Origin: Oligoflexales bacterium
Lineage (GTDB): Bacteria > Bdellovibrionota_B > Oligoflexia > Oligoflexales > Bog-1112
Direction of reading: 5' to 3'
DNA: 22,232 nt
NCBI GenBank assembly: GCA_045105515.1
Contig: JBGCDR010000212.1
Span: 1-22,232 of the forward strand
A program made the position numbers and the translations under genes. The notes under the pieces are model-generated. The model searched no databases. It had not been told where the DNA came from and saw only the letters and a program-made list of their open reading frames with translations. This document shows, piece after piece, positions 1,217 to 21,872 of the stretch; position 1 is the first letter of the stretch; each line of letters starts with the position of its first letter.

Positions 1217-3961
1217 TTAGAGGCCTATTGTTTGGATACGATCAAGATCATCATATTCAAGATAATAGGCGAGGTTTCTGTACCTTTTTGTTTTGATCTG
1301 ATTGTAGATACTCAACCTCTTATCTAAGGATACTCCCTGTCTTTTAAGGTCAAAAAGTGCAAGGAGATGAGTTCTAGCAGCTAGCAGAGAAAGTTTGTGA
1401 GCATGATAGTAGTAAAAAGAATGAGCATTGGTGTTATGAAGATTTAATTCATAGCGAATGAAAGGATCATGCTTAAGTTTATTTATAGCCTCATTAAGTT
1501 GTGCAATAGTGTTATAGAAAGTTTGAAATGCTGTTTCGATGACTTTGCTATTATCCCCAATTCTTAGCTTAATTTTTTTACGATGGTATTGATAGTTATT
1601 GCGGGTGTATTTGAGGATGATGTTTTTAGCCTCATCAATAGGATCACTATAAATATCGCAATCAGTGATAATATATAATTTCTTACGGTGCATACCTAAA
1701 ACACGGTGCAGTAAAGCAAAACCATTGATTCCTGTTTTCAAGATGAAAGCTAAAATTGGTTTTGGAGTATCATGTGAGCTATGGGATTGTAGTTCATTGA
1801 CGAGTTTGGCGATCTCTTTTTCTTTGATACCAGCTTGGGAGAATATCAAGAATTGATTTTTTGGGGTAGCTTTTAATTTTTGCAATTCGCTGCTGCTTAG
1901 CACTTGTCTGAGTTCTACCTGTCTGATTTCATGTCCTACGTCATACCTAAACTTAGGAATTTTAGTGTGAAACAGCTTATTCAAGTAGTTTGCGATTCTG
2001 TCTTGTTTGGCTGTTCTTAGGTATGAGTCTTTAATCAATGCGGTTAGTTCAAGCTCTTCAGAGACTTTTTCCATTTTTCGGTTCTTATTATTTTGTTCGT
2101 ACTTCCTCTTATTCATTGCTGACATGGCAACAAGGTAGTTACCATTATAAAGTTTTTCTTTGACCTTTTGACGCAGTATTATTTTATGAGAAGTCACTGA
2201 TCTTCCATTAGTTATAAGCGAATAGCCTTTTGCCCTAGTACGAGAGACTCCGAGTCCGGTCCATTTGTCGTTATGAGGCAACCATTCGATATCGACACCG
2301 CTCCAAGTATTATGACTTGGAAGATAGGTGTGTTGCATCTCTAGAAGGCAAATGCCGCGACTTGCCAATGATTTTTTCTGACTTGCAAAATATCTAAGTA
2401 AGCTCTTTTTTTGATCGTCCTCGAATTTGACTAAGAAGGATTCACTTAAGCCGGGAATCTTTCCTCTAAGTAGTCCAATATAAGATTCCTCAGAACCTTC
2501 TTTTTCAAAGTCAAATTCATAGCTGTAGCTTGTTGCTGCAGCAAGATTTGAACTAAAACTGCACTTGTATGCTCCTAGTAGACTTAAAAAAGGCCCCCAC
2601 TCTTTGATTTCTTTTATTTCTAAGGAAGCGAAAATTTTTTTATTCTTTAATTTTCTAACTTTTATGGAAAACAGACCTTTCAATTCAAAGGCAATTCCAG
2701 CATGGGCAGCAGGAAAAACATAGCCACCCCTAATTCCCATAACGCCACCTCCATAAATCTTTCCCTGGACAATTTTTTCAGCCTCTTCGCCTTTAATCCA
2801 TTTGAGCGGAGTTAAAAGATTTAGAGGTTCATTTTTTTTTGATTTGGAGAAGATCTTTTTAAATCCCGTTTTATCAGCTACTTTTTGATAGCTCTGGGCA
2901 TTTTTGAGTCTAGTATAAATCCTATATATTGATTTCTTTACACTTTCGTAGGCGACCCATGCACCAAAATCTGGGCTAATAGGCATACTACTTGCACCAC
3001 CTAAAATAAAACGATATTTGTGTTTGTTCGCATCTTTTAACTGAATTTTATGATAATTTTGCAAGCTATGGTTCTTACCTTTGTAAGGTTTAAGGTATTG
3101 GAACGTTTGTGAGTGAGTATTGCGATAATAAATCCCACTTGAAACAATATGTCCCGTGGGGCTAAGATATCCTGCAGCTACACTTCCGCCAATTTTATCA
3201 GACCATCCTTGCAAATAAGCACTGACACCAACCAAAGAGTTATTGCTTCCTGCACTTAGAGGAAATGCATATGAAAAGCCTAATTTTGCAATATCTGACT
3301 TCGCTTTAAACCAAGCTCCAATTCCAGCTTGTTCTGATACATAGCCACCTCCAAATCCAAGGTATCTGTGGTCAAAAAATAGGTTTGTAAAAATTGCTGC
3401 CTGATGGTCATCGCTTAATTCATTAAAAAAAATATTGCCTCTCGTTTGGTAGTAATTATATTGACCATAAAAACCTTCGACACCTAGCATAGGCGTCGAG
3501 TAAATATTGGTAATAGGTTTCAGTTTGTTGATCATTTTGTGAAAAATATCGAGGCGCATAAAATCCCTAAGCTCTTGAATGTTGAATTTGCCAGTTTCTT
3601 GCTGTGCCGCAAAAGCTTCATCAAAAGCTTGTTCAAGAAATTCTAGAATTTTTTCTTCGGTAATTAGCTGTTCTTTGATGGCTATTTCTGCGTTAATACT
3701 TGCATGCTTAAGGAAGTAGGGAATTTCCTTGAGATCGAATAAAAATACAAATTTTGGTGCAAACCACGAATCACTATCTGATTGAGCAATATAGATCTTT
3801 TCTTTAAGGAGCCTGTCGCATTGAAATTTTGTCCATTCAAATTGGGTACGGGCTTCTGCAAAAGTTAGGATACCTATATTATAAATATAAACATAATTAT
3901 TAGCATAAATATTTCTTAGAGATGTAAATAAAATCAGGATGATCAAACACTTTTTTCTCAT
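1217..3961 (-). CDS. Large hypothetical secreted protein, 914 aa
   Basis: Long uninterrupted ORF. N-terminal signal peptide-like sequence MRKKCLIILILFTSLRNIYA. Gly/aromatic-rich beta-strand-like middle and helical basic C-terminus. No family recognised. Confidence 0.8.
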   Translation of the reverse strand: MRKKCLIILILFTSLRNIYANNYVYIYNIGILTFAEARTQFEWTKFQCDRLLKEKIYIAQSDSDSWFAPKFVFLFDLKEIPYFLKHASINAEIAIKEQLITEEKILEFLEQAFDEAFAAQQETGKFNIQELRDFMRLDIFHKMINKLKPITNIYSTPMLGVEGFYGQYNYYQTRGNIFFNELSDDHQAAIFTNLFFDHRYLGFGGGYVSEQAGIGAWFKAKSDIAKLGFSYAFPLSAGSNNSLVGVSAYLQGWSDKIGGSVAAGYLSPTGHIVSSGIYYRNTHSQTFQYLKPYKGKNHSLQNYHKIQLKDANKHKYRFILGGASSMPISPDFGAWVAYESVKKSIYRIYTRLKNAQSYQKVADKTGFKKIFSKSKKNEPLNLLTPLKWIKGEEAEKIVQGKIYGGGVMGIRGGYVFPAAHAGIAFELKGLFSIKVRKLKNKKIFASLEIKEIKEWGPFLSLLGAYKCSFSSNLAAATSYSYEFDFEKEGSEESYIGLLRGKIPGLSESFLVKFEDDQKKSLLRYFASQKKSLASRGICLLEMQHTYLPSHNTWSGVDIEWLPHNDKWTGLGVSRTRAKGYSLITNGRSVTSHKIILRQKVKEKLYNGNYLVAMSAMNKRKYEQNNKNRKMEKVSEELELTALIKDSYLRTAKQDRIANYLNKLFHTKIPKFRYDVGHEIRQVELRQVLSSSELQKLKATPKNQFLIFSQAGIKEKEIAKLVNELQSHSSHDTPKPILAFILKTGINGFALLHRVLGMHRKKLYIITDCDIYSDPIDEAKNIILKYTRNNYQYHRKKIKLRIGDNSKVIETAFQTFYNTIAQLNEAINKLKHDPFIRYELNLHNTNAHSFYYYHAHKLSLLAARTHLLALFDLKRQGVSLDKRLSIYNQIKTKRYRNLAYYLEYDDLDRIQTIGL

Positions 3962-10235: not shown

Positions 10236-10289
10236 ACTTATTGGTGGATCTATTCTGGCATAGCAGTGTTTTTCTTTGGGAGCAAAAAC

Positions 10290-11732
10290 ATGCAGAAAAT
10301 TGATAATTACATAAATGGTGAGCTAGTTCCACCTAAGAAAGTTGATTACCTCGATAATTTTAATCCAGCTACTGGTGAAATTTATAGTCAAGTTGCAAAC
10401 TCCTCTTCATTAGACCTGGAAGATGCAATTGTTGCTGCCTCAGAGGCATATCCAGCTTGGTCTGGTAGTTCCAATGATGAGCGCAGTGCTTTAATTAGAG
10501 AACTTGCAGATGAGGTAGGAAGGCGCTCAGAGGCCTTAGCAATGGCAGAGGTTCAGGATACGGGAAAACCGCTAAGTTTGGCGATGAGTGTCGACATTCC
10601 TCGAGCAGCAAGTAATCTCCGATTTTTTGCCAATGCGATCACTCAATTTTCGTCGCAATCCCATAGTATGGGAGGCCTTGGACTAAATTATACCTTACGT
10701 GATTCACTTGGGCTTGTGGCTTGTATTTCGCCATGGAACCTACCCCTTTATTTGTTCACATGGAAAATTGCCCCAGCTCTTGCTGCAGGTAACTGTGTGA
10801 TTGCAAAACCATCTGAGATTACGCCTATGACTGCGTATTTGTTCTCGCAAATATGCTCAAAAGTCGGACTTCCAGCAGGAGTTCTTAGTATTTTACATGG
10901 GGCGGGCAGTGAAATAGGAGCAAAAATTTGTGCTCATGATGCAGTTAAAGCCATCTCTTTTACAGGTGGTACCCAAACAGGTGCTACCATTGCTTCTATG
11001 GTTGCTCCAAAGTTTAAAAAAGTGTCATTGGAATTAGGAGGTAAAAATCCTTGTTTAGTGTTTGCTGATTCCAATTTAGAAGATGTTGCAAACCAAGTCG
11101 TTAAGGCGGCCTTTACCAACCAAGGTCAAATATGTCTGTGCGCATCCAGGATTTATGTGGAGAAGAAAATTTATGAAGAATTTTCTGAACTTCTAACAAG
11201 TAAAACTAGAAATCTAAAGGTCGGAGATCCCCTAGAGGAAAATACTAATATGGGTGCACTCATTTCAGCTTCGCACCTCCAAAAAGTTCAGGCCTATGTG
11301 GACAAAGCGGTTGAAGAAGGGGCGAAGATCCTAGTTGGAGGTTCAAGCTTTCGACCATCTGGACGTTGTATTCAGGGTAGTTTTTTTGAACCTACTATTT
11401 TAAGTGGAGTTTCTCAAAATAGCTGCGTAAACCAAGAAGAAATCTTTGGTCCAGTCATAACTTTACAACCCTTTGCTGATGAAAAAGAGGCACTGCAACT
11501 AGCAAATGATAGCAAATACGGACTTTCTGCAAGTATTTGGAGTCAAGATCTTAGCCGATGTCATCGTTTAGCTAAAAATATAGAAGCAGGAATTGTTTGG
11601 GTTAATAGCTGGATGTTACGAGATTTGCGGACTCCTTTTGGAGGCTATAAGAGCTCTGGTTTAGGTCGTGAGGGGGGCCTGGATGCTCTGAATTTTTTCA
11701 CCCAAAGTAAAAATGTTTGCATAAAATATTAG
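10290..11732 (+). CDS. 2-aminomuconate 6-semialdehyde dehydrogenase (ALDH8/HMSDH family)
   Basis: [55 protein letters not shown] and [12 protein letters not shown], plus operon context. ATG 10290 follows GGGAG. Confidence 0.88.
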
Positions 11733-11743
11733 AAGGGGAAAAT

Positions 11744-12268
11744 ATGGCAGAGTTAATCATGCCACCTATTAACTTTAAGAAATGGATTGATGAGCATAGA
11801 CCGCTTTTGAAGCCACCAGTTTGCAATAAGTTGGTTTTTGAAGAAAATGGTTTTTTTATTATGGTGGTTGGAGGGCCGAATTCTCGTAAAGATTATCATT
11901 ATGATGAGGGACCGGAGTTCTTTTATCAGATTGAAGGAGACATGCTCCTGAAGACCATCCAGAAAGGTAAGGTGGTGGATATTCAAATTAAGGAGGGAGA
12001 AGTTTTTTTGCTCCCTCCACAAGTACCGCATTCACCTCAGAGATTTGAGAATACAGTGGGACTTGTCATAGAACGTCGTCGCACTAATTCGGAAAAAGAC
12101 GGGCTGCAGTGGTACTGTGATTACTGTACCAATCTATTATATGAAGAATATTTCACCTTAAAGAATATCGAAAAAGACTTTCCACCTGTGTTTGATCGTT
12201 TTTTCTCAAGTCAAGATTATCGTACCTGTAATAAATGTACTCACATCATGCCTTGCCCGGGGGAATAA
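11744..12268 (+). CDS. nbaC: 3-hydroxyanthranilate 3,4-dioxygenase
   Basis: [39 protein letters not shown] and rubredoxin-like CDYC/CNKC. ATG 11744 follows AGGGG. Confidence 0.96.
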
Positions 12269-13281
12269 TGGATCTGACCATTGATATTCATACCCACATT
12301 CTTCCTGAAAATTGGCCAAATCTCAAAGAAAAATATGGGTATGGGGGATTTATTCATTTGGATCATCATCGCTGTGGCTGTGCTCGGATGATGATGGATA
12401 GTAAATTTTTTCGCGAAGTTCAAGCTAATTGTTGGGATCCAAACCTTAGGATAGCTGAGTGTGATACTCAAGGGGTCCATGTCCAAGTCTTATCCACGGT
12501 TCCCGTGATGTTTTCTTACTGGGCCAAGCCTGAACATACTCTTGACCTTGCAAAACTACTGAATGACCATATTGCTGGACTTGTGAATACTTATCCAAGT
12601 AGGTTCCTTGGTCTTGGAACCATTCCTATGCAGGCTCCAGAACTCGCTATTAGAGAGTTAGAGCGTTGCATAAAGGAACTAGGTTTAAGTGGCATACAGA
12701 TTGGATCGCATATTAATGATTGGAATCTAAATGCTGAAGAATTATTTCCTATTTTTGCTGCTTGTGCTGACTTAGGTGCCACCGTTTTTGTCCATCCTTG
12801 GGATATGATGGGCAAGGATCGTATGGCTCAGTACTGGCTGCCATGGTTAGTTGGAATGCCCGCAGAATCTTCTTTGGCAATCTGTTCGATGATATTTGGT
12901 GGGGTCCTTGAAAAGTTACCAAACTTAAAAATAGCCTTCGCCCATGGAGGAGGTTCCTTTCCGGGGACTGTTGGGCGCATCGAACACGGATTTAATTGTC
13001 GGCCTGATCTCTGTGCGGTAGATAATCCAAAAAATCCCCGTGAGTACCTTAAAAAGATCTATGTGGATTCCCTAGTTCATGATCCTGCTCAACTAAGGTT
13101 TATCGTCGATATGTTTGGAGCGGATAGAGTAGTCTTAGGCTCTGACTATCCATTTCCGCTTGGAGAAGCAAAACCAGGAAAATTAATAAAGACTTGCGGA
13201 TTTGATGATGCCACCACTGCAAAACTATTGCACGAGAGTGCTTTACAACTTCTCGGAGTTTCGAAGGAACGGTTTGTATGA
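12268..13281 (+). CDS. nbaD: 2-amino-3-carboxymuconate 6-semialdehyde decarboxylase (ACMSD)
   Basis: [41 protein letters not shown] and [15 protein letters not shown] stop/start overlap with nbaC. Confidence 0.95.
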
Positions 13282-14096
13282 TCGACAACTTGTTTTGCCT
13301 TATCGAAAATAAAAAATACTTGGTTAAGCTAGTAAATGCTCAGCATATTAGCATTCCCCTAAATTTCAGTGGGGAGCAGCCAAGTCTTTATGCTGCCCCT
13401 AGAGCTGATGCCCAGGTATTCGAGAGCGGTGGGTTTGTAGGGTCGACTGGTTCTGGGGGAAGCTGCAATGTCGCTCATATTAGTTTGGTCCCTCATTGCA
13501 ATGGAACCCATACTGAGTGCATAGGTCATATTAGCAATAAGGTCGAAGCCGTCCATGATTGTCTGCAAGACTCTTTAATCGCTTCGACTTTGATCTCTGT
13601 AAATCCGATCCTGGCAGGTAATTCTCAAGATGAATACTTACCGAACAAAGAAGACTCCGACCTTTTGGTGACCCGTGATAGTTTAGAAGAAGCCTTATTT
13701 TCGGTCAGTGAATCGTTTGTTCAGGCTGTTATTATCCGTACCCTTCCGAACCCAATCAGTAAAATGGGTGCTACTTATGGGCCTAGTTTGCAGCCTGTAT
13801 TTCTATCTTTCGATGCAATGAAATACCTTGTGAGTCGCAATGTTAGGCATTTGCTCGTAGATTTTCCTTCTGTTGACAAGATGTATGATGAAGGCAAGTT
13901 GAACAATCATAATTATTTTTGGGGTCTTGTTGGGAATGCAGTATATCCTGAATATCGGAAGACGATTACAGAAATGATTTATGTACGTAACGAAATCGCT
14001 GATGGAAAATATTTTTTGAATTTACAGATTCCAGCATTCAAGTCTGATGCAGCTCCCAGCCGACCAATTCTCTATCCGATTGAGGAGGATTTATGA
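13278..14096 (+). CDS. kynB: Cyclase-family metal hydrolase, probable kynurenine formamidase
   Basis: [13 protein letters not shown] metal motif, [16 protein letters not shown] and DAAPSRP. ATGA overlaps with nbaD and kynU. Confidence 0.8.
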
Positions 14097-15370
14097 ATTT
14101 TGAAAGTGGTAAAGCCTTTGCACAGAAATTAGATGAGCAAGATCCGTTAAAAGATTATCGGCAAAAATTTTATATTCCCAAGCAACAAAATGGGGATGAT
14201 GAATATTACTTTTGTGGAAACTCTCTAGGATTACAGCCTAAGAACTGTTTGAAATTTCTCGAGCTTGAGTTAGAAAAGTGGCAACAGCTTGGGGTTAAGG
14301 GGCATACCCATGGTGAATACCCATGGATGCCTTATCATGAGTTTCTCCTTGAAGATTTAGCTATGCTTGTAGGAGCCAGGCCAGAAGAAGTGGTTCCGAT
14401 GAATTCATTGACTGTGAACCTGCATTTGATGTTGGTGAGCTTCTATCGTCCCACTTCACATCGTTATAAAATACTTATAGAAGACCATGCTTTTCCTTCT
14501 GATCAATATGCTCTCGCTTCGCAAATTAAATATCATGGTTTTGCAGAGGATGCGCTGATCCGTCTCAAGCCAAAATCTAGATCGACCCTCTTGACAAAAG
14601 AGGATTGGCTTGAGGCTATAGAACGCGAAGGTGAACAGATTGCACTAGTTCTTTTACCAGGGGTTCAATATTACTCTGGTCAGATAAGTCCAATGAAGGA
14701 AGTGACTTTGCTAGCACAACAGCGTGGTTGCAAAGTTGGAATAGATCTTGCTCATGCTGTAGGTAATATTCCCTTAAGTCTTCATGATTGGCAAGTGGAT
14801 TTTGCGGTCTGGTGCCACTACAAGTATCTAAATAGTGGCCCAGGAGCGGTTGGTGGATGTTTTATTCACAAGAAGCACCATAATTCAAATTTAACTAAGT
14901 TTGCAGGTTGGTGGGGCCATGACAAGAATAGTCGTTTCAAGATGCGAAGCGAGTTCAAGCCAAGTGCCTCTGCTGAAGCATGGCAGCTATCAAATCCGCC
15001 TATTCTAGCTATGGCAGCAATTAGAGCTTCAATGCAAGTTTTTAGAGAGGTTGGGGGCATGGAGCCTCTACGTCAGAAATCGTTGAAAATGACTGCTTAC
15101 TTAGAGTTTCTCTTGCAGTCGAAGCTTGCAAATAAGTTGAATATTGTCAGCCCAACTGATCCTGAAAAACGCGGTTGTCAATTGTCACTAGAGCTATGTA
15201 CAAATCCAGGCGCTTCAAAACAGGTTTATGGATACCTAAGTGAAATGGGTGTCACAAGTGATTGGCGAGAGCCTAACGTGATGAGAGTTGCACCAGTTCC
15301 TCTCTATAATTGTTTTATGGATGTTTATAAATTTGTTGAACTTCTTGAAGAGAGTATGTCTCATGTCTGA
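14093..15370 (+). CDS. kynU: Kynureninase
   Basis: YFCGNSLGLQP, MNSLTVNLHL, FPSDQY, DLAHAVGN, WCHYKYLNSGPG (PLP Lys), GWWGH, SNPP and RVAPVPLYN. Confidence 0.97.
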   Translation: MNFESGKAFAQKLDEQDPLKDYRQKFYIPKQQNGDDEYYFCGNSLGLQPKNCLKFLELELEKWQQLGVKGHTHGEYPWMPYHEFLLEDLAMLVGARPEEVVPMNSLTVNLHLMLVSFYRPTSHRYKILIEDHAFPSDQYALASQIKYHGFAEDALIRLKPKSRSTLLTKEDWLEAIEREGEQIALVLLPGVQYYSGQISPMKEVTLLAQQRGCKVGIDLAHAVGNIPLSLHDWQVDFAVWCHYKYLNSGPGAVGGCFIHKKHHNSNLTKFAGWWGHDKNSRFKMRSEFKPSASAEAWQLSNPPILAMAAIRASMQVFREVGGMEPLRQKSLKMTAYLEFLLQSKLANKLNIVSPTDPEKRGCQLSLELCTNPGASKQVYGYLSEMGVTSDWREPNVMRVAPVPLYNCFMDVYKFVELLEESMSHV

Positions 15371-16715
15371 TCGTGAAATTACTTTAGTTGGTGCTGGATT
15401 AGTCGGTTCTCTCTTATCAATTTTTTTAGCTAAAAGAGGTTTCAATGTCTCTGTTTATGAACGTCGGCCTGATTTAAGAAAAACTGAGATATCAGCTGGT
15501 AAGTCAATCAATCTTGCACTTGCAAATCGGGGAATTTTCCCTCTAGAACAAGTAGGACTGATGGATCGAGTTCGCAAGATCATGCTACCTATGCGTGGGC
15601 GTATGATTCATGATGAACAGGGGAACACTAGTTTTCAAGCTTACGGACAAAAAGATCACGAAGTTATTTACTCAATATCACGAGGCCAGCTCAATGCTTT
15701 GCTCCTGGATGCTGCTGAAGAAACAGGTCAGGTTAAATTCTTTTTTAAGCATCAATGCAAGCAGGTTGATTTTTCAAATAAGCAGTTGAATTTTCTCGAC
15801 GGTGTTAAGGGAGAATATAAAAGAGTTGAATTTAAACATGTGATAGGAACTGATGGTAGTAGCTCAGCTGTCAGAAAGGGGATTTTATCGCAAAAGGGTG
15901 AACAAAATTCTCAAGAACCGCTGGGTCATAGCTATAAAGAGCTATGCATGCCTAAACGGCCTGATGGAAGCTTTGCTATGGAAGCTGACGCATTGCATAT
16001 TTGGCCCAGAGGAGAGTATATGCAGATAGCTCTTCCAAACTTAGATGGAAGTTTTACTGTTACACTCTTTATGCCAAGTGAAGGAAATTTTGGCTTTTCA
16101 GGTATTGATTCTGTTTCAAAACTCAGGGCTTTTTATAAAGCAAATTTTAGTGATGCGTTACCATATTTGCCTGGACTCTGTGATGAATATTTCAATAATC
16201 CTACCGGAAGTTTAGTTACCGTGAGGTGTAAACCTTGGTTTTTTGAAAACAAAGGTCTAATTCTAGGGGATGCCGCTCATGCAATTGTACCCTTCCATGG
16301 ACAGGGAATGAACTGCGGATTCGAGGATTGTTTGGCCCTAATGGAATGCATGGATGGGTCGGATTCCTGGGAGGAGGTTTTTAGATCCTTTGAATTACTG
16401 CGTAAACCCAACTGTGATGCAATAGCAGACCTAGCAATTTCAAATTACCTTGAAATGCGCAAGACTGTGAGAGATCCTAAGTTCCAACTAAAGAAACAGT
16501 TAGCCTTTCAGTTGGAAGAGCTTTATCCAAATATTTTTATCCCTCAATATTCAATGGTTATGTTTCATCGAGTGCCATATTTGCGAGCTAAACAGATTGG
16601 TCAGGTCCAGGAAAAAATCCTAGAACAGTGTGTCGAAGGAGTAGACATTCCTGAAAGAATTGATTTTGCGATGGCATGCCGCTTGGTAGAAGAAAACCAA
16701 TTGAGTCTCAATTAG
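15363..16715 (+). CDS. kmo: Kynurenine 3-monooxygenase
   Basis: GAGLVG FAD motif, GKSINLALANRG, YKEL, ALHIWPRG, IALPNLDGSFT, GDAAHAIVPFHGQGMNCGFED and NYLEMR. ATG 15363 overlaps the kynU end. Confidence 0.96.
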   Translation: MSDREITLVGAGLVGSLLSIFLAKRGFNVSVYERRPDLRKTEISAGKSINLALANRGIFPLEQVGLMDRVRKIMLPMRGRMIHDEQGNTSFQAYGQKDHEVIYSISRGQLNALLLDAAEETGQVKFFFKHQCKQVDFSNKQLNFLDGVKGEYKRVEFKHVIGTDGSSSAVRKGILSQKGEQNSQEPLGHSYKELCMPKRPDGSFAMEADALHIWPRGEYMQIALPNLDGSFTVTLFMPSEGNFGFSGIDSVSKLRAFYKANFSDALPYLPGLCDEYFNNPTGSLVTVRCKPWFFENKGLILGDAAHAIVPFHGQGMNCGFEDCLALMECMDGSDSWEEVFRSFELLRKPNCDAIADLAISNYLEMRKTVRDPKFQLKKQLAFQLEELYPNIFIPQYSMVMFHRVPYLRAKQIGQVQEKILEQCVEGVDIPERIDFAMACRLVEENQLSLN

Positions 16716-16746
16716 AGAAAAGAGTATCCTCATGATTTTTTTCCGC

Positions 16747-16775
16747 TTGACAGCTCGTTGTACGCTGGATAATTT
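16747..16775 (+). promoter_or_regulatory. Putative sigma70 promoter
   Basis: Perfect TTGACA (16747-16752), 17-nt spacer, TAATTT (16770-16775). Alternative -10 is GATAAT at 16768-16773 with a 15-nt spacer. Confidence 0.55.
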
Positions 16776-16844
16776 GACCTTAAAGGGTAAAAATTTAGGT
16801 GTCTAAAAAACCTAAGTTCACCATAAACACGCGGTATAAAAAAA

Positions 16845-16940
16845 ATGTCTGTAAATAAAAAAAGCAATAGTAGTGTCTTATTCATTCTTTCCCAAAATGA
16901 CTTCTGTCTTGCTTCTGCCCTTTCTTGTTGTTGCTGTTAA
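16845..16940 (+). CDS. Putative poly-cysteine leader peptide, 31 aa: MSVNKKSNSSVLFILSQNDFCLASALSCCCC
   Basis: ATG at 16845, ending TGT TGT TGC TGT TAA. Lies between the promoter and the EamA gene. No clear Shine-Dalgarno (A-run upstream). Too short for the supplied ORF track. Confidence 0.4.
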   Translation: MSVNKKSNSSVLFILSQNDFCLASALSCCCC

Positions 16941-17073
16941 TTTTTGAAATATTTTCCAAGTAAAAATTTTTTAACTAGCCTCTAGCGTTGTGCTTGCTTA
17001 AATATTTTTTGATGCCAAGTGCTCAAAAGTCGAGCTGCGCATTACTAGAGTCTTAATTTGAAGAAAGCTGTTT

Positions 17074-17979
17074 GTGAAGCCTCTTAATGTGTCATTAAAT
17101 GTATATAAGAGTATCTTGTGGGTCTTGTGCTGGTCATTAAGTTTTAGCTTGATGATGGTCTTAATCCGTAAGCTTGAGGATCGGGTTAGTATCCCCATGT
17201 TAGTTTACATAAGGCTTATATGTGGATTCTTGTTTTTCCTTCCTTATTGCTTTAGTTTTGGACTTGCAAACCTTAAAACTAGCAAGGGTAGCTTTCATCT
17301 CTTAAGGGTTCTTCTTTATACCGGCTCAATGTTATTGACATTCTACGCTTATGCCCATTTACCAATGACCACTGCAACTAGTATTGGATTCTCGGGGCCG
17401 ATTTTAACCTCTTTTCTATCTATTTTTTTATTGGGAGAACGGGTTGGTAGGCTTCATTGGTTGTTTATTCTTCTTGGGTATGGTGGGGTACTTGCTTGCG
17501 TTGGGCCTACGAGCATCGCTATGAGCACGGCTGTTGTCTCTTCAATACTTGCTAACTTACTTGCAAGTTTTAGCCTTATTGCGATGAAAAAACTTACCCA
17601 GACAGAAAATCTACCGAGGATCATGTTTTGGGCTAACTTTTTCAGTATCATATTACTCAGTTTTGGAGCTCCTTTTTTCTGGCAAGCACCAAGTAGTGAA
17701 GATTTATTGATCCTTATTTCGCTAGGGGTAATTGGAGTATTTTCACAATTTAGCTATATCAAAGCTTTAGTAAATGGAACGCCAGCCTTGGTAGCTCCCT
17801 TTGAGTTTTCTAGGCTTTTATTTGCAGTCCCGATTGGCCTGTTTTATTTTTCGGAGCCTTTTCATATTTGGACTTTTTTTGGTGGTGTTTTGATCATTGT
17901 TGCTAATACAGGCATTGCCCTCTTGAGTCAAAAAAACAATTTAGCAAATAGTCAACCAGTCCACGCTTTAGAGTCTTAG
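17074..17979 (+). CDS. EamA/DMT-family transporter (about 10 TM, two EamA repeats)
   Basis: About ten hydrophobic segments. FYAYAHLPMTTATSIGFSGP, LLGERVG..HW, QFSYIKAL and VAPFEFSRL..GLFYFSE. GTG start. Confidence 0.9.
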   Translation: MKPLNVSLNVYKSILWVLCWSLSFSLMMVLIRKLEDRVSIPMLVYIRLICGFLFFLPYCFSFGLANLKTSKGSFHLLRVLLYTGSMLLTFYAYAHLPMTTATSIGFSGPILTSFLSIFLLGERVGRLHWLFILLGYGGVLACVGPTSIAMSTAVVSSILANLLASFSLIAMKKLTQTENLPRIMFWANFFSIILLSFGAPFFWQAPSSEDLLILISLGVIGVFSQFSYIKALVNGTPALVAPFEFSRLLFAVPIGLFYFSEPFHIWTFFGGVLIIVANTGIALLSQKNNLANSQPVHALES

Positions 17980-17987
17980 GTGAGTGT

Positions 17988-18785
17988 ATGTGCCGCTTGT
18001 TCGCAATGAAATCAAAAGAAGTCAATGCCGTATTCCCTTACTTGGTGGAAGATAACAATGCGCTCATCCACCAAAGTGTCACAAATCCTCATGGCTGGGG
18101 TCTAGCTTTCTATCAGGAAAATAAAGCATTTATTTTGAAATCAGAAAAGACTGCTCATCAATGTTCACAGTTTCGTAGTGTATCTAGATCACTTATGGCA
18201 GATACAGTCCTTGCTCACATTCGCAAGGCAACTGTTGGTTTTCAAAAGATTGAAAATTCACATCCATTTAGATTTGGATTTTGGACCTTTGTGCATAATG
18301 GTAATATCAAAGGTTTTGACTCGATAAGGCCATTGATCATCCAGGAAATAGATCCACTCTTAAGAGATCAGATTCAAGGTGATACAGATAGTGAAGCAGT
18401 TTTTTTCTTAATTTTGAGTTTTCTGAATAGGAAGAGAGCTCTCTGCACCCCAAAGTTAAATTCAAAACATGTCATTGCAAGCATTGAAGAAGCATGTGCT
18501 AAGATTTGTGATATAGCTGGAGAGCTTTGTCCAGACGACCGTGCAGAAGCAACGGAAAATTTTTTGACATTCTTGCTTTCCAACGGCAATACCATTTGGG
18601 CACATCAGGGAGGCAAAAACCTTTACTATCGCTTGTCATATCATAATGGTCGCGATCTCAAGAATATTACTTTTAGCAGTGAGCCACTTAATGATCAAGA
18701 ATTGTGGACTCTTTTGAAGTTTCGTGAAATTGCTGTGGTAGACCATTGCTTAGGGTTTAAGTTATTTCCTTTTAGTGAATATTAA
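17988..18785 (+). CDS. Class II glutamine amidotransferase (YafJ/EgtC/Dug3-like Ntn hydrolase)
   Basis: N-terminal nucleophile MCRLF, HGWG, AHIRKAT, NSHPF, FVHNG, GDTDSE and SSEPL. Starts 8 nt after the EamA stop, with AGGTGA as RBS. Confidence 0.9.
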   Translation: MCRLFAMKSKEVNAVFPYLVEDNNALIHQSVTNPHGWGLAFYQENKAFILKSEKTAHQCSQFRSVSRSLMADTVLAHIRKATVGFQKIENSHPFRFGFWTFVHNGNIKGFDSIRPLIIQEIDPLLRDQIQGDTDSEAVFFLILSFLNRKRALCTPKLNSKHVIASIEEACAKICDIAGELCPDDRAEATENFLTFLLSNGNTIWAHQGGKNLYYRLSYHNGRDLKNITFSSEPLNDQELWTLLKFREIAVVDHCLGFKLFPFSEY

Positions 18786-18793
18786 CATCTAAC

Positions 18794-18821
18794 TACTGGT
18801 TACCACCAACCAAGTACTTTT
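18794..18821 (+). terminator. Weak candidate intrinsic terminator
   Basis: TACTGGTT-accacc-AACC(A)AGTA hairpin followed by CTTTT, just after the GATase stop. Confidence 0.3.
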
Positions 18822-19003
18822 CTTAAAATCAACATTTTTTAATGTGAAATCTGAGCATTCACTATATCTAACAATTATTGGTAGTTATGAAGATTGCAAA
18901 AACATAGTTATATTTTTTAAATATAATAGCCGATAATATTACTAAGTAGGGACTTATTACCACAAATATATGTTTTTGATTTCCAGATTTCTAGGAGTAA
19001 AAA

Positions 19004-20767
19004 ATTAGAAATTTATTGAAAATAATTGGAATTTTGACTGTTTTTATTCAGCTTCTAGGGTGCAGTGGAAAATCTGTTAAAACTAATGAAGGATCTGGGC
19101 ATGTAGCTCATAAAAAAAGTCAGAATTCCCCTGGCGATGAGACTGAAGGTGATAATGATATTATACAGATTATTTCTCAGTCGAATATAGGCGCGACCAA
19201 TGCACAACTAGATGCAATAAGTCAAAGGTTATCTGAAAGTCTTAAGAGAAGTACTCTAGAAATTTTAAGTACTGAAGAGTTTGCAGCAATAGTTCAAGCA
19301 GTAGTAGACTCAGTATTATCCGAGCTTTCTCAAGAAAAGCGAGTTGAAACAGCAAAAATTTTAGTTGATTCATTATGGGATAAATTAGGGGTGGGAGACT
19401 CCATAGAAAATCCTGAATTGAGCGAAAACAATGACGAATCAGATACTACTTCACCCTCAATTCAGTCTATACCTAGTGAGCAGATGGTGTATTTAGATTA
19501 TGTTGAGGAATTCTTAGACAATCAAAAAGTCGCTTATCCACTGGATAACCGCATCAAAACAATTAATACCTATGATGTATCCAATTCAGGTCAAAAGATA
19601 TTTGATAAGGTAAGCGACGTTTATGATAATGCTTTAGCATCAATTTTTTTTACAGTAATCGGCAAACCGCGAAAAGCAGCAGACATTCTTAATTCTTGGC
19701 TTCGAATTTATCATAACAATGATTATAAACCACTGATAGCCAGGTTTAATAGTGAGACTCTCAATGGAGCTGTGGAAGCAGATTACTTCGATACTGGTAA
19801 CAATGCATGGATGGGTATAGCATTTTGTCGTTATTTCATTCAATACGCTGATGATAACAATAAAGACAAAATGATAGTCTATTACAATGCAGCCAATGAA
19901 ATCATGAAGCAGCTGCACTCTCATCAATGTGTACAAGGATTATACCGGGGTTATATGGGGCGTCCAACTAACTCGGGAACTCAAGCAGGTATGTGGCAAT
20001 CGACCGAGCACAATATCGATATGTACGCGCTTGGAGCCTGCTTAGTCGGAGCAGCAAAAGTAAATGGTACGGACAATGTGTTTGCTGCTCAGGTTCGAGA
20101 TATCGCAGGCACATTCGTGAATCAAATGTTTGATGAGGCAAAAGGGATCTATCAGATTGGAACTAATAATGTATGCAGTGATAGCACTACTATCAATCTG
20201 GGAGCTACCCCTGCTGACGCCCAATCTTGGCGCTTGCTGTCAAGAGCAGAGATGGGTGGGTCAGAAGAGAGATCGAAAAGCTCTCAAGAAGCTCTGCGAT
20301 CAGAACCTTTTTTCGAAAGGGATGCTGATTTTTCTGATCTAATTGGTCAAGACATTTTTGGGGTGCGATTTACTGATTTTGGCCGGGGGGTTCAAATGGA
20401 GAACACTGGATCTGCTCTCCTTTCATTAAATGATTTCTATGGTGAGCAGCCAGCAGATTCGGTGACTGATTTAAGAAATAGTATTAAATACCTCTTTGAT
20501 TTTTACAAAGGCGGCGGCATACCTGCAAGTTCTCAATCTGACCCAAATCCGCAGGCTCGTGGTGGATTTAATACCGGTTTATCATGGAGCTATTTTGACT
20601 GGCCACATGTGGCATCCACGGTATGGTCCGGACTAGCTTTAGCCTATCAATTTGAAGAAAACGGTGGAATTCTAATTGGGATGAATCCCTTTTATCCAGG
20701 AAGTTCTATGGTTCCGGTACTAGAAGATATTCCAACACCTCCATCGGCGGCTGAATTATCTGATTAA
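19004..20767 (+). CDS. Lipoprotein with probable six-hairpin glycosidase-like C-terminal domain
   Basis: Lipobox LLGC, then an acidic/low-complexity linker, then a domain with YDNALA, DTGNNAW, STEHNIDMYA, ENTG and PHVASTVW motifs. The fold is inferred. Start is ATT 19004 (6 nt after AGGAG) or TTG 19016. Confidence 0.65.
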   Translation: MRNLLKIIGILTVFIQLLGCSGKSVKTNEGSGHVAHKKSQNSPGDETEGDNDIIQIISQSNIGATNAQLDAISQRLSESLKRSTLEILSTEEFAAIVQAVVDSVLSELSQEKRVETAKILVDSLWDKLGVGDSIENPELSENNDESDTTSPSIQSIPSEQMVYLDYVEEFLDNQKVAYPLDNRIKTINTYDVSNSGQKIFDKVSDVYDNALASIFFTVIGKPRKAADILNSWLRIYHNNDYKPLIARFNSETLNGAVEADYFDTGNNAWMGIAFCRYFIQYADDNNKDKMIVYYNAANEIMKQLHSHQCVQGLYRGYMGRPTNSGTQAGMWQSTEHNIDMYALGACLVGAAKVNGTDNVFAAQVRDIAGTFVNQMFDEAKGIYQIGTNNVCSDSTTINLGATPADAQSWRLLSRAEMGGSEERSKSSQEALRSEPFFERDADFSDLIGQDIFGVRFTDFGRGVQMENTGSALLSLNDFYGEQPADSVTDLRNSIKYLFDFYKGGGIPASSQSDPNPQARGGFNTGLSWSYFDWPHVASTVWSGLALAYQFEENGGILIGMNPFYPGSSMVPVLEDIPTPPSAAELSD

Positions 20768-21095
20768 AACTTAATGGGATAGTCCAAGGTGAGTGAATCA
20801 ATAATTCTACTAGCGACTTTCTACTTAATAGCCATGATTCAATTTTTCGGCGAATACATCTTTACTCGGCCAGTGCATAAAAGAATGCAGTTCCAATTCA
20901 TTGCTCATTAACTTATATGATTCTTCACCATTAAACTGAACTAAAATATCAACTTGTAGGCATCTGTACCCTTTGCAACCTTTTCTGCTAAAATTCTTGC
21001 TTCTTGACTGATATAATCTCAAAACTAAAAAATGCTTGAAAATTAGAAAATTGGGGCTACTATTCACTTGTTTTTATTCTGTTGTAGGGGTTTTT

Positions 21096-21872
21096 ATGTT
21101 CAAGAATTTGCTCATCAGTTTGTTTCTGCTTATTATAGCTCATTCCGCTTTTTCAAATTCTCAAGAGGAAATACAAAAACTGGAGGAATTTTTAGACCAA
21201 ACAGACATAAAATTCATGTCCGAAAGTGATGCAGAAGAATTTAATTTCTTGACCGTGGAAGTGGATGATAAATTTTCCATTAAAGCTGATCTTGGAGCAG
21301 TGGCTAAAGCATCCATAGCCCTCAGGAATGCAGTGAATAGGGATATTGGTAGAAAAAAGGAAGCAAAAGATAATCATGATAATAAGTCCTACCAGCTAAA
21401 ATTGGCGCAGTTAAGCTATAGTGCAAATGCCGTAAAATTACTGAGATTAATCGTTAAAAAAGAGTTTATTCCTTACAGTGAAGATATCATAAAAAGATAC
21501 CCAGACATCATGGAAGAACTTTTATCAATTATGGAAAGCTATGGAATAGATGGATTGTCTTATGTGATTGCTAATGCTTGTAAATCAGATTATTTCTGCC
21601 CTTCTTCTGCTAAATTTGCCGAACTGCTTCTTCATAGTAATCCTGATAGCCTCATTATTAAATCGCTCATGGAGTCCATTTGTTGGGCTTCTCTATCTAA
21701 ATCTTCTAAGAATGTGTCATTAGATGCTGAAGAACTTTTTAAAAATTTTGTAGTGACCAACTTCAAAGATTTATGTACTAGATTTTCTTTTTTTCAATTA
21801 GTTCTAAGTGCTTTTAGTGTTGAGTCACGTGTTGATACTTTGGTTAGAAGAGTTGTCAATAGATATAAGTAG
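21096..21872 (+). CDS. Hypothetical secreted protein (possibly the 5' part of an interrupted gene)
   Basis: ATG 21096 follows AGGGG. Signal peptide MFKNLLISLFLLIIAHSAFS. Helical-looking body with no family recognised. Confidence 0.7.
   Translation: MFKNLLISLFLLIIAHSAFSNSQEEIQKLEEFLDQTDIKFMSESDAEEFNFLTVEVDDKFSIKADLGAVAKASIALRNAVNRDIGRKKEAKDNHDNKSYQLKLAQLSYSANAVKLLRLIVKKEFIPYSEDIIKRYPDIMEELLSIMESYGIDGLSYVIANACKSDYFCPSSAKFAELLLHSNPDSLIIKSLMESICWASLSKSSKNVSLDAEELFKNFVVTNFKDLCTRFSFFQLVLSAFSVESRVDTLVRRVVNRYK

Follow-up and report, generated by a model that had tools for sequence, protein, structure and literature searches.

What does a very short open reading frame (ORF) that ends in four consecutive Cys codons do in front of a transporter gene and a hydrolase gene? 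This question is raised by contig JBGCDR010000212.1 of an uncultured Oligoflexales bacterium (assembly GCA_045105515.1); the window analysed here is the entire contig (C212), with a length of 22,232 nucleotides (nt). The genome to which it belongs, hereafter G000, consists of 6,286,444 bases (6.29 Mb) in 461 contigs, with 38% G+C and a completeness of 91%; it is compared with G001 (94% complete), a congeneric Oligoflexales metagenome-assembled genome. The small ORF is very probably a selected functional element of some kind and, judged by analogy with other bacteria, stands about an even chance of being a cysteine-sensing cis-regulatory leader ORF of the EamA and GATase_4 operon that follows it. 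The features on which this reading turns are:

16845..16940, + strand: poly-Cys small ORF (candidate leader peptide) of 31 codons, with an ATG start; translation MSVNKKSNSSVLFILSQNDFCLASALSCCCC-stop.
16926..16937, + strand: tandem Cys codons TGT TGT TGC TGT, the last four codons, immediately before the TAA stop.
16941..17073, + strand: spacer of 133 nt from the small ORF to EamA, poorly conserved in the middle.
17074..17979, + strand: EamA/DMT-family transporter gene (PF00892 in two stretches, 95.3 bits), with a GTG start.
17988..18785, + strand: gene for a class II amidotransferase-like hydrolase (N-terminal nucleophile or Ntn type, N-terminal Cys) of the GATase_4/YafJ type (PF13230, 81.7 bits).

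The small ORF has five Cys in total, ends in SCCCC-stop and is preceded by A-rich DNA. An earlier, sequence-only reading of this DNA had proposed a cysteine-responsive leader here, and its description of the locus (a TTGACA-N17-TAATTT promoter, the ORF at 16845-16940, four Cys codons, a 133-nt gap and 8 nt between the two operon genes) proved exact in all coordinates. That reading also cautioned that such codons could be a chance TGT repeat, and it is therefore convenient to ask first how unusual they are. In the six frames of G000, runs of at least four TGY codons directly followed by a stop occur four times, and runs of exactly three occur 49 times; by itself, the Cys run is not astronomically rare, and the case for function rests on conservation. 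When an ATG-started ORF is considered, at least four terminal Cys codons are found only in the window (6,286,444 bases, six frames). Furthermore, G000 contains 67 short ATG-started ORFs (8-60 amino acids) with three or more Cys codons in a row, seven of them outside long ORFs, and a run of at least four is limited to the window ORF and to an artefact of a (CAA)n microsatellite. The corresponding (CAA)n/(CAG)n microsatellite, located at positions 7358-7519 of contig C123 and at the end of contig C391, presents 36 Cys codons on the opposite strand; this contig-end microsatellite is an assembly-breaking repeat, not a gene. No second copy of the peptide or of the leader DNA was found in G000.

Orthologous loci were sought with the GATase protein in 41 relatives and then in 131 genomes of the class. 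Just one other genome, G001, has an ortholog (76% identity). The remaining matches (at most 45%) form a paralog group, of which G000 also has a member on contig C60, and the paralog loci inspected (L030-L036 left out) showed no adjoining EamA gene and no Cys-run ORF in their flanks of about 1.5 kb. G001 was likewise the sole match in a scan of public genome contigs for orthologous loci, and a scan of JGI metagenomes found none. The protein database holds three further GATase orthologs (74-78%; next best 42%) and three further EamA orthologs (75-86%; next best 45%), all of them from assemblies of ENA and Logan; a single 12,121-base contig apparently carries one ortholog of each kind, which suggests that a third organism has the two genes side by side. 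About five organisms in the protein database make up this narrow clade, with locus DNA compared for two.

In G001, the gene order is the same (monooxygenase, small ORF, EamA, GATase), and at the syntenic place there is an ORF of 36 codons, MSVHNKSSISSVLSALAQNLSSPVSSSSCCCLCCCC-stop, which ends in CCCLCCCC-stop. Its tract, TGT TGC TGC CTT TGT TGT TGC TGC TAG, has Cys in seven of the last eight codons; the conserved terminal Cys run with TGT/TGC variation, set by the sequence-only reading as a test of its proposal, is present in the sole orthologous locus compared. Twenty residues are identical among 28 aligned codons, six of the twenty being encoded by different codons, and the synonymous changes fall at Leu (CTT/TTA), Gln (CAA/CAG), Asn (AAT/AAC), Ser and Cys. 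The ratio of non-synonymous to synonymous substitution rates (dN/dS) is about 0.22, with a dS of about 0.98. In the three flanking genes, approximately half of the identical residues have different codons, and dS is saturated and not computable. At 96 and 111 nt, the two small ORFs are 15 nt apart in length, so that the frame is kept, and the extra 12 nt in G001 bring further Cys codons. Further parts of the leader are conserved as well, namely the ORF start, a AGTAGTGTCTTAT block within the ORF, the Cys tract and the EamA start region, whereas the mid-spacer is scrambled between the two genomes. Intergenic DNA under no constraint would be expected to be scrambled at such a divergence, and these leader parts are conserved nonetheless.

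The possibility of a functionless chance ORF in AT-rich, TGT-repeat-prone DNA draws on the four (TGY)4-stop occurrences in the genome and on the ease with which TTG/TGT repeats arise, but it appears very improbable: start, frame and Cys tract are conserved while the synonymous divergence of the flanking genes is saturated, and the genome has no other such ATG-started ORF. The chance repeat of the earlier caveat is, in consequence, unlikely. How easily such repeats arise can be seen in G001 itself, where a 33-codon GTG frame ending in VVCCC-stop (L028 1321-1422, - strand) lies in a TTG/TGT-repeat stretch just downstream of the GATase gene; considered as a second poly-Cys ORF, it was rejected, as it is not conserved in the G000 window and is probably due to chance.

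As regards sequencing reads, no RNA sequencing run was found to contain the locus, and three DNA runs of one study, the probable source of the contig, do. In one run of this study (X2), a low-depth contig of 180 nt matches 16902-16972 (71 nt) with two differences and is exact at 17058-17079, the intervening 85 nt being swapped for 87 other letters. This contig may be a third variant, from a co-occurring related strain, in which the pattern of conserved parts is as in G001, and it is taken as a weak hint.

Selection on the DNA could also be explained without translation. The conserved element would then be non-coding (a regulatory RNA or a protein-binding leader), and a conserved UG-rich sequence would give rise to the frame and the Cys codons only incidentally. 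Such an element is improbable, given that ATG, frame and stop position are kept across the 15-nt length difference, that the changes at Leu, Gln, Asn, Ser and Cys codons are synonymous, and that the 12 extra nt in G001 add Cys codons and not arbitrary sequence. In its favour, the dS of the ORF, being below that of the saturated flanking genes, points to constraint at the nucleotide level, and both a 5' hairpin and a post-stop block (described below) are conserved outside the ORF; in addition, no Shine-Dalgarno sequence precedes the ORF, whose ribosome-binding site the earlier reading had called weak. In both genomes, three registers allow an invariant AGUAGUG block to pair with the UG-rich tract; these pairings are, however, mostly G-U and A-U, and no Rfam family matches the region even at E<=10.

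If the ORF is translated, its product might matter in its own right. A functional Ser/Cys-rich peptide is unlikely, whether as a poly-thiol, as a metal binder or as a precursor that the Ntn hydrolase would process and EamA would export. It would account for the conservation, with synonymous changes, of residues outside the Cys tract (MSV-NK-S-SSVL and L-QN), for the Ser-rich product in both genomes, for the hydrolase and the exporter-type transporter that follow in the same operon, and for the failure to find an RNA switch. Nevertheless, conservation is poor in the mid-part of the peptide (five of 15 codons identical between VL and the Cys tract, G000 vs G001), the number of Cys in the tract varies (4 vs 7), and a gene of the maturase type (radical SAM, cyclodehydratase or similar) is lacking from the conserved unit, whose synteny stops after the GATase gene. 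The peptide has neither a signal peptide nor a membrane helix, and a feature search of the Protein Atlas with it gave no usable match. Moreover, a C-terminal Cys run in front of an operon corresponds to a published sensor design (bioRxiv 10.1101/834739). The more specific idea of an undescribed three-gene module, in which a poly-thiol peptide of 31-36 residues would be processed by the YafJ-type Ntn hydrolase and exported by EamA, is very unlikely.

The preferred reading, a leader ORF, is best considered together with the remaining features of the region upstream and immediately downstream of it:

16747..16752, + strand: -35-like hexamer TTGACA, read from the sequence, with a putative promoter function.
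16770..16775, + strand: -10-like hexamer TAATTT, after a 17-nt spacer; TAGTTT in G001.
16792..16818, + strand: 5' leader hairpin with a 9-bp stem and a 9-nt loop, from folds compared with shuffles in both genomes.
16818..16829, + strand: conserved single-stranded block TCACCATAAACA, with invariant columns, between the hairpin and the ORF start.
16941..16958, + strand: U-rich post-stop block TTTTTGAAATATTTTCCA, conserved in G001 and within the 71-nt match of X2.

The TTGACA hexamer and the flanking TTTTTTCCGC are unchanged in the alignment of G000 and G001, and the T-run upstream of the hexamer is conserved. A consensus promoter scan made no call at TTGACA-N17-TAATTT because the -10 hexamer agrees with TATAAT at only three of six positions. 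From the conserved -35 and -10 hexamers, the transcript is predicted to start at approximately 16782, about 63 nt before the ATG of the small ORF. A leaderless start at the ATG was considered and rejected: the TATAAA at 16835-16840 is too near the ATG and lacks a properly spaced -35. Within the predicted leader, the 5' hairpin has a folding energy of -8.0 kcal/mol in G000 (z -3.33; one of 200 shuffles as good) and its counterpart in G001 reaches -13.2 kcal/mol (z -3.75; none of 200). Eight base pairs are homologous, with 16 of 16 cells paired and with two two-sided and two one-sided changes, a pair conservation that is not significant against shuffles with two sequences (127 of 500 reach it). 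An antisense ORF of 51 codons (16730-16885, - strand; 47 codons in the G001 counterpart) runs over the promoter and the 5' leader, and we take it as incidental because its similarity seems to track the conserved promoter blocks without a codon-like pattern.

Poly-Cys leaders are not new, and a literature search found published ones only for Actinobacteria and Rhodobacterales. In Mycobacterium smegmatis, Ms5788A is a 90-nt small ORF that closes with eight Cys codons, is followed by a spacer of 97 nt and controls Ms5788 in response to cysteine: a ribosome awaiting Cys-tRNA in the tract blocks a duplex of the tract with the downstream ribosome-binding site, as shown by start-codon, nonsense, frameshift and compensatory mutants (bioRxiv 10.1101/834739). 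The ORF studied here resembles the mycobacterial Ms5788A/Rv0815A type ('Cys ribulon') in its size of about 30 codons, its Cys run directly before the stop, its same-strand spacer of some 100-130 nt to the first operon gene without an intrinsic terminator, and its Cys tract conserved among relatives (here in both of two loci) with non-Cys residues partly conserved (Canestrari et al., bioRxiv 10.1101/834739). It differs in four respects: (i) the mycobacterial small ORFs belong to Actinobacteria and are leaderless, whereas this one belongs to Oligoflexales and probably has a leader of about 63 nt, with a 5' hairpin, ahead of the ATG; (ii) a stable duplex between tract and ribosome-binding site could not be shown here, the pair probabilities reaching about 0.28 at most in G000 and staying under 0.2 in G001; (iii) a single locus stands against a multi-locus regulon; and (iv) the genes controlled would be EamA and a YafJ-type amidohydrolase, which are not annotated as cysteine genes.

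The uORFC-8-2 motif of Rhodobacterales is an upstream ORF with tandem Cys codons before cysS (Brewer et al., 2021, PMC8632094). Like the ORF described here, it is leadered, carries tandem UGC and UGU Cys codons and is a proposed sensor of charged tRNA-Cys; in contrast, it has two stems and a U-run terminator, where no terminator was found here, and cysS of G000 (contig C98) lacks such an upstream ORF (PMC8632094). A third group is formed by the leader peptides with Cys runs predicted before cys/cbs operons of Actinobacteria (Seliverstov et al., 2005, PMC1262725). These also have Cys codons near the stop and no conserved terminator, they precede cysteine-synthesis genes, unlike the EamA/GATase pair, and their mode of action was left open, with Rho being suggested (PMC1262725). 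Classical trpL/hisL attenuators, finally, have a terminator and an antiterminator after the regulatory codons, and neither a terminator nor a post-stop hairpin better than shuffles was found in this leader.

By this analogy, the small ORF would be translated as a leader ORF on the 5' leader of the operon, and its terminal Cys run would make ribosome transit dependent on charged tRNA-Cys. The dwell of the ribosome on the last codons, whose footprint would cover the post-stop block, would then set the expression of the operon in cis. The route from stall to expression could be start-site masking, Rho or another; the mechanism and the sign of regulation are both an inference by analogy. The preferred direction, and the weakest step, is that the operon would be on at low cysteine, salvaging a cysteine-yielding compound.

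Several results weigh against a cysteine-sensing leader. No terminator-like site was found in 16400-19100. The hairpin after the stop folds no better than shuffled sequences do (z +0.41 in G000, +0.08 in G001), and the small hairpin that both genomes have around the EamA start is a weak one (z -0.47 and -1.07). When the Cys tract is masked as if a ribosome sat on it, the EamA start window does not open: its mean unpaired probability goes from 0.36 to 0.32 in G000 and from 0.57 to 0.51 in G001. In the RNAalifold consensus, worth just -7.15 kcal/mol as a whole, UGC-UGU-UAA is paired with the region of the EamA start; one of the pairs is compensatory (UAA/UAG of the stop against U/C, two bases ahead of that start). 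To these must be added the lack of a Shine-Dalgarno sequence before the small ORF; the conservation of the N-terminal residues MSV-NK-S-SSVL and L-QN, superfluous in a pure codon sensor; the comparison of leader DNA in two genomes only, both congeners; the fact that EamA and the GATase are not established cysteine genes; and the lack of a regulon, given that seven other cysteine-related upstream regions of G000 have no comparable ORF. The regions in question are those of cysS (C98), the cystathionine beta-synthase (CBS)-like gene, the CysK/M-like gene, the Cys/Met pyridoxal phosphate (PLP) enzyme gene, the gamma-glutamyl transpeptidase (GGT) gene, the GshB gene and the GATase paralog gene.

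In G000, AAGAAAG ahead of the EamA start is a possible pairing partner of a CUUUCUU directly before the Cys tract (probability of about 0.28); in G001, nothing above 0.2 pairs the Cys tract region with the EamA start. The helices common to both genomes, as found by a scan, are mostly A-U and G-U pairings. Rfam gave no family in the whole window at gathering scores and no credible match in 16600-17200 at E<=10, a tRNA scan of the window gave none, and the spacer is, by eye, not C-rich, so that it offers no positive hint of a Rho site. In all, the search for a switch (whole-leader, consensus and local folds, stall simulation, shared helices) yielded only the 5' hairpin as better than its controls. 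Of the cysteine-responsive leader proposed by the sequence-only reading, the part that stands is a selected, probably translated poly-Cys ORF, shared with G001; a terminator, a switch or an opening of the start site was not found.

The same computations bear on the sign of regulation. A translated upstream ORF with reversed logic, in which high cysteine would turn on EamA as a thiol exporter in a tnaC-like manner, or else a constitutive upstream ORF for basal translation, is quite unlikely. Proteins of the EamA family typically act as exporters, with cysteine and O-acetylserine as substrates in the case of E. coli EamA. Under the simulated stall, the EamA start becomes slightly less accessible in both genomes, and in G000 the CUUUCUU segment competes for the purine-rich stretch before that start (about 0.28 vs 0.3); these accessibility and competition effects are, however, small and model-dependent. 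Furthermore, terminal runs of a single codon are the hallmark of tRNA-charging sensing, and the published cases are switched on at shortage. As far as the sequence alone goes, an exporter switched on at high cysteine would be equally compatible.

The two operon genes are close to their G001 counterparts and distant from characterised proteins. EamA is 85% identical to the G001 protein (255 of 300 residues), which has an ATG at the alignment column of the GTG of the window; among NCBIfam models, only generic EamA/DMT ones respond, below their cut-off (the best, 2A78, with 59.5 vs 230.2 bits). The GATase_4 gene begins 8 nt after EamA, with a GGTGAG Shine-Dalgarno sequence, and its PF13230 score of 81.7 bits compares with a gathering cut-off of 23. 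The MCRLFA N-terminus is conserved in five of five GATase orthologs and fits an N-terminal Cys nucleophile, and the HIRKAT, NSHPF and HNG motifs are also conserved in the five. The protein thus shares with the EgtC/YafJ-type Ntn amidohydrolases the GATase_4 fold family and the N-terminal Cys nucleophile (MCR...). EgtC-type members and the fungal Dug3 remove gamma-glutamyl groups from thiol compounds. Unlike EgtC, the protein is below the equivalog cut-off (TIGR03442, 89.7 vs 218.65 bits) and has no egtB/egtD neighbours; its best solved relatives are the uncharacterised PDB entries 1te5 and 3mdn, ahead of EgtC 4zfj.

With regard to cysteine metabolism, no CysE is above cut-off in G000 or G001 (best 31.5 vs 210.65 bits). 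Both genomes have a CysK-family match below the cysK cut-off, in an open frame of 473 amino acids in G000 and 466 in G001, which looks like a CBS-like enzyme. A Cys/Met PLP enzyme, a GGT and a GshB-type ligase are likewise present in the two genomes, and an E. coli-type GshA was not found in either; G001 has, in addition, a CysK/M-like gene behind a ThiF/MoeB-like gene. Since CBS-like and CysK/M-like genes are present, cysteine auxotrophy is not claimed. The lack of a CysE above cut-off, together with the CBS-like, PLP, GGT and GshB context, fits a need to watch cysteine, and the operon would fit a salvage pair for the uptake and cleavage of a gamma-glutamyl thiol when cysteine is short. Such a pair would also agree with the chemistry of EgtC and Dug3, though the role in glutathione or gamma-Glu-Cys transport and de-glutamylation that the sequence-only reading proposed is a guess. 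That the leader acts as a tRNA-Cys sensor switching on such a gamma-glutamyl-thiol salvage pair in bacteria without CysE is offered tentatively and with low confidence. Elsewhere in G000 (contig C112, 7010-7060, + strand; L038), a 16-codon ORF, MCCFANSKNLISCFGQ, has tandem Cys codons at positions 2-3 and lies about 60 nt before a CysK/M-like gene that has a strong Shine-Dalgarno sequence. As a second leader it was rejected, since nothing corresponding was seen at the best G001 hit, a gene located behind the ThiF/MoeB-like gene instead.

The leader is directly preceded, on the same strand, by a complete-looking row of kynurenine/tryptophan degradation genes (10266-16715, + strand): aldehyde dehydrogenase, 3-hydroxyanthranilate dioxygenase, ACMSD-type amidohydrolase, cyclase/formamidase-type protein, kynureninase and a flavin adenine dinucleotide (FAD) protein of the kynurenine monooxygenase (KMO) type. 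The gene for the latter, which is the monooxygenase of the conserved gene order, ends at 16715. At least the last two genes of the row are syntenic in G001 (L028 3495-6120, - strand). No terminator is predicted between the row and the leader, and therefore read-through into the EamA operon is possible. Downstream, synteny between the two genomes stops right after the GATase gene: the ORFs of 583 amino acids (19016-20767, + strand) and 278 amino acids (21036-21872, + strand) have no Pfam or NCBIfam match, and the 278-amino-acid protein that follows in G001 is unrelated to the window ORF of that length. At the other end of the window, the gene for a CheW-domain protein (563-1108, - strand) adjoins an ORF of 914 amino acids (1217-3961, - strand) without a Pfam match.

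In general terms, the element described here resembles a poly-Cys leader ORF in the way it works and is most likely one, with a control principle already known from other bacteria. The weight of the case is limited by the very narrow clade and by a mechanism drawn from analogy. If the reading is true, ribosome-based cysteine sensing would extend to Oligoflexales (Bdellovibrionota) and would govern genes beyond cysteine synthesis, that is, an orphan EamA transporter and a YafJ-type amidohydrolase. These two proteins would thereby gain a testable link to cysteine or thiols that family assignment alone gives to neither of them and, were the salvage reading also true, it would provide the first functional link for YafJ-type GATase_4 proteins.

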